Shown here one piece after another: positions 1,549 to 3,999 of a stretch of 64,000 nt of DNA. Under the pieces are notes generated by a model that ran no database searches, was not told the origin of the DNA, and was given only the letters and a program-made list of their open reading frames with translations. Both the position numbers and the translations under genes were made by a program. The DNA is from Desulfovibrionaceae bacterium (lineage in GTDB: Bacteria; Desulfobacterota; Desulfovibrionia; Desulfovibrionales; Desulfovibrionaceae). The stretch lies in contig JAFTDU010000007.1 of NCBI GenBank assembly GCA_017454005.1, forward strand, positions 19,522 to 83,521, written 5' to 3'. The first letter of the stretch is position 1; the number at the start of each line of letters is the position of its first letter.

Positions 1549-2072
1549 ATGCAGGAGTCGAGCGTAGCCTTGCAGGTGTTAGCGTATTTGCGCAAACGCT
1601 ATCCTAAACCTGCGACTAATTTACATTTTAGAACCCCTTGGGAGTTGTTAGTGGCAACAGTGCTCTCGGCGCAATGTACCGATGCAAGGGTTAATCTCAT
1701 AACACCCAAGGTCTTTGCCACCTGGCCAAGCCCAAAAGACATGGCGCAAGCACGCATAGTTGAACTTGAAGCTGCCATCAAGTCCTGTGGCTTTTACCAC
1801 AATAAGGCTAAGAATTTAAAAGCCTGTGCCAAGCGTATTGTGGAAACATTTGCAGGAGAAGTGCCTAAAAATTTGGATGACTTGCTTTCACTCCCAGGTG
1901 TTGCCCGCAAAACGGCCAATTGTGTGCTCTTTGGTGCCTTTGGCATTAATGCCGGCTTAGCTGTTGACACTCATGTGAAGCGTATTAGTTTTAGATTAGG
2001 ACTTACACAATCCAAACAGCCAGAAACTATTGAGCAAGATTTGTTAAAGCTTTTTCCCCAAGAAGAATGGGT
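1549..2072 (+). CDS. nth: Endonuclease III, exon 1
   Basis: ELLVATVLSAQCTD, HhH motif LPGVARKTAN, AVDTHVKR. AAGGAG RBS at about 1539. The frame stops just after W174 and lacks the Fe-S domain. Confidence 0.93.
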
Positions 2073-2112
2073 AGCCTAGCCTAAGCATTAGGCCCTGATT
2101 TAACTTAAGAAT

Positions 2113-2507
2113 ACCCTTCGTAGCAAGTAATTGCTGCGAACTCAACGTTAAATGCTTTGAATCCCTAAAGCCATGCTACCTACACAGTAGATGGAAACAT
2201 CAAGCTGCCAGTGGTGCGAAAGCAGAAAAAACAGCATGGATAGCGCACGGTGAAAAGAAGCCTACACGCAAGAACAATGGGTGTTTAGCAGGGACAGTCC
2301 TAAGATTTTTGGCGCTTGCGCCTAAAGTTATGGAAGACCCCCAACGACTATCTCCTTAAGAGGGAGAGTAAAGCAGGAAGTGAAGGCCTGAAGAAAAATG
2401 TTGCGCCAAAATTATTTGGCTGAAGATATAGTCTGCGCTCATGTGAAAGCATGAGAGGTCTTAAAAGACTGCAGAAAGAGTTGCGTCTTTCTGTGAACAC
2501 ACTAAAG
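2113..2507 (+). ncRNA. Group I ribozyme core A (IA-like, with P7.1/P7.2)
   Basis: P2 2117-2140 with GUAA loop. P3 CAACGUU 2143-2149 / AAUGUUG 2397-2403. P element AAAUGCUUUGAAUCCCUAAAG, Q AAUGGGUGUUUAGCAGGG, R CCCCAACGACUA at about 2339-2350, S GAAGAUAUAGUC 2422-2433. P8 GCCAAA/UUUGGC and P9 hairpins. 3' boundary uncertain. Confidence 0.88.
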
Positions 2508-2544
2508 TAAGCCCAGAAGCTTACTTGAACGGGCTTGTGACAGA

Positions 2545-2958
2545 ACCCTTTACATCTTGTAAGAGGTGTAAATGCAACGTTAAATGCTTTGAATCCCTAA
2601 AGCCTTACACCTAAACAGTAATCTGAAAAGATAAGCTGAAGGCGCGAAAGCAAAAAAAACGTAAGGATGGCATAAGGTGCAAGACAAGCGGATCTCCGTC
2701 CTAAGTGCCATAATAATGGGTGTTTAGCAGGGACAGTCCTAAACTTTTTTTAAGCATGGAAGACCCCCAACGACTATCTCCTTGTGGGAGAGTAAAGCAG
2801 GAAGCCTAGGCCTGAAGAAAAATGTTGCGCCAAAATTATTTGGCTGAAGATATAGTCTGCGCTCATGTGAAAGCATGAGAGGTCGAAAGACTACAGAAAG
2901 AGTTGCGTCTTTCTGTGAACAAGAAGAAAAAGTGCTCTTTTAAGTTGCACTCGTACGG
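2545..2958 (+). ncRNA. Group I ribozyme core B (paralog of core A)
   Basis: P2 2549-2572 with GUAA loop. P3 CAACGUU 2575-2581 / AAUGUUG 2821-2827. R at about 2765-2776, S GAAGAUAUAGUC 2846-2857. Same P8 and P9 helices as core A. 5' boundary uncertain. Confidence 0.88.
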
Positions 2959-3067
2959 AAATGTCAATCATCGCATGGTGTGGTTTGGACGTGAGATATG
3001 TAAGGCTCGTCAACCTTTGTGTCAGGAATGTGAGCTTCAAAAAATATGTCCACAATATGATGTATAA
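2959..3067 (+). CDS. nth: Endonuclease III, exon 2 (4Fe-4S cluster domain)
   Basis: Translates NVNHRMVWFGREICKARQPLCQECELQKICPQYDV*, containing the EndoIII C-X6-C-X2-C-X5-C motif. Confidence 0.93.
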
Positions 3068-3184
3068 TTAGGTACAATGTGTCTTAAATGATTTTGCTGA
3101 AAGTGCTTGCTGATCACGGGTTTAGTTTTACTACACGTTACAGAAAATTTTTTAGATTATAACATGCGCTAAAGGAAGAGCATT

Positions 3185-3874
3185 ATGCAGAATAAAGGTT
3201 TCGCCAATAGCGATAGATATCAGTTTAAGGTTAAGGCCTTGCCAGAAAAAAGCAGCTATTTTGTCTTTGGGCAAGATTCAGCCCAAAATGTCACCTTTGA
3301 TACGGCATCTGTGCAAAAGTTTTCTGCTAATGATTTTGTAAAGCTTGGGTCTGATTTTGAGACTCGGCAAGAGCCAAAGCAGAAAGTGCAAGATGACTGG
3401 CTTGAGTTTGGTTCACCCAATGTTCTGCCCTATTATAAAGCCCTAAATGCCATCTACCCTAATTTTACCATACGTAATTTTGGGCAGTTTTTTGCGACCA
3501 ACGATGGCACTAAAAGTGCTCCTCAAGAGGAAGTTGTTAATAATATCAACTTTACCAAGCAGAAGATGCAAGATAACACAGATACTTATGCTAAGGAACC
3601 TGTGAGCATCTTTGGTGGATCCCATTTAACTTCTTTTAAAGACTTACAGTTTAGCGTCTTAAAAGAGAAGCAGCTGCTTGCAATTAGTGGCCAAGATGAT
3701 CTAAAGCAATCTGTCTTATCATTTAAGAGTGCAGATGCAGGGCAAAGTTCTTACGAACAATTTGCGCATGCCTTCACCCAACAGTGGTTTAGTGCTGATG
3801 TCGATCTCACCAACATTACTCCTAATCTTAATAAAGACGCTGAGGCCACCTTTACCGTTAATACCAAAGACTAG
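3185..3874 (+). CDS. Hypothetical protein (229 aa)
   Basis: Long ORF with AGGAAGAG upstream; no recognisable motif. Confidence 0.6.
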   Translation: MQNKGFANSDRYQFKVKALPEKSSYFVFGQDSAQNVTFDTASVQKFSANDFVKLGSDFETRQEPKQKVQDDWLEFGSPNVLPYYKALNAIYPNFTIRNFGQFFATNDGTKSAPQEEVVNNINFTKQKMQDNTDTYAKEPVSIFGGSHLTSFKDLQFSVLKEKQLLAISGQDDLKQSVLSFKSADAGQSSYEQFAHAFTQQWFSADVDLTNITPNLNKDAEATFTVNTKD

Positions 3875-3888
3875 CTAAGCTCATTTAA

Positions 3889-3999
3889 ATACCGTGGGTC
3901 GCACGGAAATCTAGGCCTGTGGAGACAGCGTACCTCTTCGGCGAAAGTGCTGTTCTTGTTGAGGCAGGAAGCCCCCGCCTCTGGCGGGGGTACATTCAA
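3889..3999 (+). mobile_element. Orphan IS200/IS605 right end / TnpB omegaRNA-like element
   Basis: ACCGTGGGTCGCACGGAAATCTAGGCCTGTGGAGA...GAGGCAGGAAG, then hairpin CCCCCGCC-TCT-GGCGGGGG (3972-3990) and TACATTCAA. This resembles the 3' end of tnpB-type elements. No tnpA or tnpB nearby. Confidence 0.7.

Follow-up and report, generated by a model that had tools for sequence, protein, structure and literature searches.

The nth gene in the window (the whole stretch of DNA analysed, 64,000 nucleotides from a gut bacterium) is probably interrupted by two independent, ORF-less introns derived from IStrons that lie one base apart, with a single G predicted to serve as an exon and to restore the reading frame. 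The interrupted gene, a DNA-repair gene coding for endonuclease III, was identified by profile search (TIGR01083, 212.6 bits) and also matched PF00730. The reading frame that starts at position 1549 reaches ...PQEEW and a stop codon located just within the insert, and the 4Fe-4S motif is found after position 2958. A preliminary description had bounded the element at positions 2113 and 2958, of which the end is right and the start is not, the true start being at 2072. The organization of the locus is given in Table 1.

Table 1. Organization of the interrupted nth locus; positions are those of the window.
Feature	Position	Strand	Remarks
nth exon 1	1549..2071	+	Ends ...GAA TGG G; target TGGG at 2068-2071; TIGR01083, PF00730
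Intron A, 461 nt, ORF-less, IStron-derived, group IA2-like	2072..2532	+	RF00028 match; ends AACGG
Intron A, left end	2072-2112	+	
Intron A, guide ACCC	2113-2116	+	
Intron A, core	to 2498	+	
Intron A, tail		+	34 nt, with hairpin
Near-identical 3' part of core A	2385..2500	+	111/116 identical to core B 2809-2921; putative gene conversion
Predicted one-base exon G	2533..2533	+	Middle base of Gly codon GGA; predicted from sequence
Intron B, 425 nt, ORF-less	2534..2958	+	RF00028 match, P9.0; ends TACGG
Intron B, left end	2534-2544	+	11 nt
Intron B, guide ACCC	2545-2548	+	
Intron B, core	to 2920	+	
Intron B, tail		+	38 nt
nth exon 3	2959..3067	+	4Fe-4S cysteine motif, to stop codon; PF10576 match

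The Rfam covariance model RF00028 matched the insert twice, at positions 2072-2455 in core A (41.7 bits, E 6.2e-9) and 2546-2879 in core B (35.9 bits, E 3.4e-7). The matches do not overlap, as the preliminary description had expected, though both are under the gathering score of 50, and because of this a scan of the window at that score listed nothing. The two cores appear as direct repeats with a spacing of 422-439 nt and have fold z-scores versus shuffles of -3.3 and -2.5. P3, P4, P7, P8 and P9 are identical in both copies, and sequence differences that preserve pairing are seen in P2, in the P5 extension, and in its GAAA hairpin. All the helices quoted before were present and paired, and the earlier claims of two complete group I cores and of helices conserved by compensatory change held up. 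Over 75 pairs of a structure defined by hand from copy B, in which two helices are poorly aligned and kinship among cores is ignored, 1492 of 1556 cells (95.9%) were paired in the 21 full cores of the genome, as compared with a mean of 88.7% and a maximum of 89.8% in the letter-shuffle control; 23 of the 75 pairs had changes on both sides. Both A and B have group IA2-like features, namely P3-P9, the P7 G-binding helix, P7.1/P7.2, and P9.0-P9.2, a label that follows the features listed in the available part of a survey of IStrons (PMC4227781) and not a subgroup model. Pairing analysis of intron A identified P1 (GGGUA/UACCC), P9.0 (CG/CG), and the tail fold, and at the right ends of A and B, the part that in group B IStrons includes a long AU-rich inverted-repeat stem and omega-RNA, it showed short tail hairpins only. 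In both introns the terminal G is accompanied by P9.0, with CG in J7/9, and the 5' exons end in G, the following base facing the A of ACCC. For group B IStrons, splicing after G has been described as an exception (PMC4227781, in the part available).

A search with nhmmer of the genome that includes the window (G000, 1.97 Mb, 68% complete) revealed 34 matches, and once three split matches had been merged 31 cores or fragments remained; two of the fragments lie at contig ends and are possibly halves of one element. When flanks were compared using 2.4 of the 2.81 Mb of the complete relative G007, the same reference protein was found on both sides, in sense and contiguous, for 20 of the 31, and the remaining 11 are mostly located at contig ends or have no reference match. 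The interrupted genes include what we take to be topA, polA, truB, HU, panC, rpsF, and an [FeFe]-hydrogenase gene. Identity among the 21 full-length cores ranges from 60 to 90% with a median of 73.5%, in an alignment from which 10 sequences, either fragments or copies carrying long inserts, were omitted. The core is interrupted by long insertions at G000 C75:4764-5382 (-), C68:25263-25816 (+), and C80:7685-8141 (+), and the C75 intron is 2614 nt long with a 1.8-kb tail. The core, put forward before as the best candidate for a new system, is one of about 30 IS607-type IStron intron copies, and such a number of diverged copies in a 68% complete genome makes the family arguably a larger finding than the nth locus.

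To define the splice sites of the family, 16 junctions were scored against the reference protein with 311-1473 in-frame candidates each. The junction in which the intron starts after GGG and ends with NGG shared the top score in 13 of the 16; it was second, and gap-free, in C34, ranked 17th in C68, which interrupts a poorly conserved gene, and failed in C23, where the best junction ends CGA. The 5' side reads TGGG at 15 junctions and AGGG at one, the introns end with CGG (9), TGG (5), AGG (1) or CGA (1), and the junctions are scarless. J7/9 covaries with the intron end, as CA goes with TGG in 3/3 and CG with CGG in 9/12, which supports P9.0 and a terminal G that is the last G of the intron. 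The core starts with ACCC, for which the GGG of every target is a possible pairing partner. The C23 copy (G000:C23:2127-2546 (-)), located in a polA-like gene, has an unchanged P7 and represents either a terminal-A intron or a case in which both sites have moved by one base. Two other genes harbor two copies each: a truB-like gene (G000:C18:5440-6417 (-)), in which they surround a 19-nt exon and the joined reading restores a conserved G-x-T-T-D-T-W-D stretch, and a gene that is presumably endonuclease-I-like (G000:C85:509-1801 (+)), in which they are separated by about 420 nt of exon.

Application of this rule alone to nth, joining position 2071 directly to the sequence after 2958, results in a frameshift. 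The addition of G2533 renders W-G-N-V-N-H and a 210-amino acid protein. Since a Gly is found at the junction in 29/29 relatives, all of which read Trp-Gly, the direct join lacks one G. The linker between the cores includes only one run of GG, CGG followed by G within GAACGG/G/CTTGTG, and consists of a family-type right end, one G, and then the 11-nt left end that precedes ACCC; the 34-nt tail of A and this left end fall within the ranges of the family (9-1808 and 10-188 nt, respectively). When 1275 linker segments were tried as exon, G2533 shared the highest score with ten more single G's and was the sole choice that conformed to the rule. The non-core intron sequence of the other copies, 6151 nt in total, includes CGGG 0 times and GGG 9 times, a rarity from which about 0.07 GGG would be expected in the nth linker. 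Reading both splice sites one base earlier makes position 2532 the exon and leaves the product unchanged. The preliminary description had proposed one intron and had seen no room for a micro-exon; the junction rule of the other copies yields instead two introns around G2533, and homology under this rule demands precisely the extra G that is present there.

The target context of B is CGGG (GGGG after removal of A), unlike the TGGG of the family, still ending in GG, and the P1 of B is absent from the minimum-energy fold of the linker. The left end of B is complementary to exon 3 in register over five Watson-Crick pairs, which could form P10 (chance 0.004 for the register). A family-wide test for P10 gave nothing significant at five registers (permutation p 0.25 in register), and as P10 is not general in the family we give the pairing of B little weight. 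As a mechanism, the guide ACCC of each intron would pair with the preceding GGG to form P1 and the CG of J7/9 would pair with the CG before the last G to form P9.0; each intron would then splice itself out, and either order would result in the same mRNA. Joining of the 5' site of A to the 3' site of B would cause a frameshift with loss of the 4Fe-4S domain. The 3' parts common to A and B make such exon skipping a likely side reaction, and skipping has been documented for phage group I introns (PMC11878797, part of the text available).

A composite splicing unit, in which one core removes positions 2072-2957 or 2073-2958 and the other is a passenger or a helper, is improbable. Removal of 2072-2957 in one step, with the 3' site one base early, restores W-G-N and scores equal to the one-base-exon model in protein homology, and removal of 2073-2958, with the 5' site after U, is in frame with a Val, a residue that would replace the Gly kept in 29/29 relatives. 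The shared 3' parts would allow core A to pair with the tail of B, the fungal cox3-640 tandem appears to be spliced as a single unit (PMC12308204), and phage group I introns are known to skip exons (PMC11878797), as far as the available parts of these papers go. The splice registers required would, however, frameshift the single-copy loci and clash with the P9.0 covariation, and both the presence of CGG followed by G in the linker and the full preservation of two cores would be left unexplained.

It is very improbable that the two-intron anatomy is right while splicing works poorly or leaves out the G in most cases, nth being a pseudogene in effect and the cores being retained through recent origin or conversion. 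The gene is not known to be generally essential, and mis-pairing is possible as A and B share their 3' parts. Among seven of 10 sequencing runs, X1-X6 and X8, of which X3 and X5 gave almost nothing, no joint removing A, B or both was found; the RNA runs X6 and X8, in which the junction exons are uncovered, gave no exon-exon joint and hence no spliced RNA. Against such decay, the frame of exon 3 and its 4Fe-4S motif are intact, and so are all the core helices of A and B despite 15-24% divergence from their nearest copies. That the locus is an assembly chimera of two family members from a repeat-rich metagenome bin is scarcely credible: the MAG has about 30 related repeats and the linker (2468-2539) is uncovered by any independent contig, including those of the best-matching DNA run, which is possibly the source sample, but X1 contigs confirm both outer joints with no differences, that between exon 1 and A over positions 1400-2168 and that between B and exon 3 over 2855-3200, the sequence of the linker is unique and combines a tail with a left end, one on each side, and a single-core version with the two outer ends of nth would be frameshifted.

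The two introns belong to different subfamilies. Diagnostic letters upstream of P8 place A in the C49/C56/C75 subfamily and B in the C47/C85/C107 subfamily. This suggests two insertions and agrees with the earlier claim that the pair is neither a recent duplication nor an assembly stutter. The co-variation between A and B is not special to the pair, as their differences are subfamily differences common to other copies. From P7.2 on, A and B are nearly identical (Table 1), the best match among 19 other cores being about 82%; A has B-type letters in P8, the two copies share three private bases, and each of them differs by 15-24% from its nearest other copy. We infer two insertions followed by local conversion, or homogenisation, of the 3' parts. 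One element would have inserted after TGGG and another, of a different subfamily, at the neighbouring GG one base off, in an order that the sequence does not decide, and both would later have lost tnpA and tnpB and exchanged 3' parts. On sequence grounds we rejected a duplication of A in tandem by way of the shared GGG, as it would leave one G extra and the ends and 5' half of B are those of the other subfamily.

Judging by its sequence, the core family has the signature of the group B (IS607) IStrons in insertion site, end, and splice position. In the available part of the survey, these elements insert after AGGG, TGGG or GAGG, end with CGG, and splice after G, and their IS portion follows GAACAA/GAACAC (PMC4227781). 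The IStron target has also been given as TGGG, with GG strictly required by the Clostridium botulinum transposase (bioRxiv 2023.11.20.567912), and alternative 3' sites as mostly ending in CGG (PMC13521648), both sources being available in part. A (TGGG) and 16/16 other junctions (TGGG or AGGG) have group B insertion sites, and that of B ends in GG but is off consensus; both A and B end with CGG, without target-site duplication. IS607 TnpA and TnpB are absent after P9.2 from both window copies, which are therefore ORF-less derivatives and not complete IStrons. A near-complete IStron with frameshifted tnpA and tnpB (G000:C13:12390-14836 (-), L044) has a right end common to C11 and C18. Its frameshifted TnpB matches PF07282, PF01385, and PF12323, and its remnants resemble TnpA frames found in related elements (E 4e-8 and 1e-9), one of which scores as an IS607 transposase (NF033518, 217 bits). 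A whole 389-amino acid TnpB frame with an IStron right end is found at G000:C11:438-1810 (+) (L042), with no intron core upstream on that contig. Neither the resolvase profile PF00239 nor the IS607 transposase profile NF033518 had a match in the 68% complete genome, and no intact IS607 transposase was found there. Separately, a short intergenic stretch at window positions 3894-3979 resembles by eye the DNA downstream of an unrelated TnpB fragment (G000:C110:~370-500), and may be what remains of an IS200/IS605 right end.

The names of the best nth homologues are Desulfovibrio, Mailhella, and Desulfovibrionaceae. Of 110 other genomes belonging to the genus, 2 gave a match to the core. G087 and G089 have the core (on 8 contigs of the latter), and in both nth is uninterrupted over the matched region. 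A BLAST search of 400 family genomes, with two candidates scored in each, gave one borderline 24-nt match only, and a 32-base core pattern, which also misses the core-carrying G089 and G087, was found in 0/400. In GTDB genomes this pattern identified 32 stretches, mostly from Lysinibacillus and also from Proteocatella, Mitsuokella, Acetobacterium, and others, and many of the related elements in other genera include TnpB and some TnpA. The preliminary description had suggested looking for single and double cores elsewhere, and none of the 32 stretches showed two full cores. A Desulfovibrionaceae Nth protein, P0002 (MBQ7585825.1), ends at FPQDEWVM, the same place as the nth of the window, so the same site may have been invaded in another lineage; a degenerate pattern for this junction matched 0/401 genomes, and a search with nth exon 1 of 2 of the 64 parts of a metagenome set gave no allele above 63% identity. 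Runs X6 and X8 include mostly diverged cores of other organisms or loci. Over window positions 2132-2924 the RNA run X6 has many diverged core variants at high depth, and the intron family seems therefore to be common in some gut communities.

Two group I-like ribozymes within one interruption are known from the GIR1/GIR2 twin-ribozyme introns of Didymium and Naegleria, in which one of the two ribozymes lies inside the other and caps RNA. Unlike these, the nth cores are in series, both are of the full splicing type, and each has its own ends; a twin-ribozyme intron or nested twintron was rejected for this arrangement and because a base is required between the family-type ends. As in group B IStrons such as BcISt1, LsISt1, SrISt1, and CboIStron, the introns have an IA2-like core with P7.1, P7.2, and P9.0-P9.2, GAACAA/GAACAC after P9.2, insertion after TGGG/AGGG, a CGG end, no target duplication, and ORF-less copies (PMC4227781; bioRxiv 2023.11.20.567912; available in part), and the same core motif is found in Lysinibacillus, Mitsuokella, and Acetobacterium elements. 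The 2014 survey, in its available part, limits IStrons to Firmicutes and Fusobacteria, with usually 1-6 (up to 24) copies at over 93% identity (PMC4227781). Here, unlike in the surveyed elements, the host appears from the names of the best nth homologues to be a member of the Desulfovibrionaceae and so to fall outside both of those phyla, about 30 copies are 60-90% identical, and two copies lie one base apart. Among bacteria, a group IA2 intron with a MITE has been described in Thiomargarita dsrA (PMC4853749, in part).

The closest parallel, as far as the accessible text describes it, is the placozoan mitochondrial cox1, where RNA intermediates showed that one nucleotide lies between two group I introns (PMC5436844). 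There too a single base is needed for the frame and for a conserved codon, and the explanation given is a second insertion one base away from the first; that case concerns group IB introns of an animal mitochondrion, whereas nth would have transposon-derived introns in a bacterial chromosome. In fungal mitochondria there are group I modules in tandem as well as group II introns separated by a one-base exon (PMC12308204; PMC7813641; available in part): Ophiostoma cox3-640 has two IA1 modules, complete and adjoining at one site as in nth, that apparently form one splicing unit without an exon, and rnl-576/577 has two group II introns around one A in an rRNA gene (PMC12308204). Phage Twort orf142 and the SIOphi polymerase gene have, like nth, neighbouring related group I introns with a skippable exon between them, and differ in being phage genes with longer exons and no IStrons (PMC11878797, in part). 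The components were therefore known already, namely IStrons, fungal mitochondrial tandem introns, and the placozoan one-base exon. In the largely open-access literature covered, neither a bacterial gene with a one-base exon nor an IStron from Desulfovibrio was found; the supplements of the IStron surveys may list such hosts or adjacent copies. Searches on bacterial housekeeping-gene introns found no paper, those on single-nucleotide exons with group I introns gave two organellar papers, and no title among the matches listed for IStrons since 2015 dealt with a case like nth.

If confirmed, the nth exon would be the shortest possible, in a bacterial mRNA processed solely by RNA catalysis. A far-reaching extension, that this is a controlled one-base exon, the first in a bacterial chromosomal gene, is unlikely. 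Under this reading the linker can adopt two alternative folds, a AAGUAAGC/GCUUACUU hairpin or AAGCCC/GGGCUU, of which the latter would bury the exon together with both inner splice sites; the order of splicing would then determine whether full Nth or a frameshifted form is made, and an old IStron invasion would have permanently split the housekeeping genes of the lineage. If confirmed, the nth pair would also be a compact system for testing how group I ribozymes next to each other avoid exon skipping and choose 5' splice sites ending in G, and the approximately 30 diverged copies, most of them in conserved genes, represent a natural covariation set for the splice-site rules of IStrons. Standard annotation would label such intron-split genes as truncated. 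The family shows that introns carried by transposons have become fixed in core genes after loss of the transposase.
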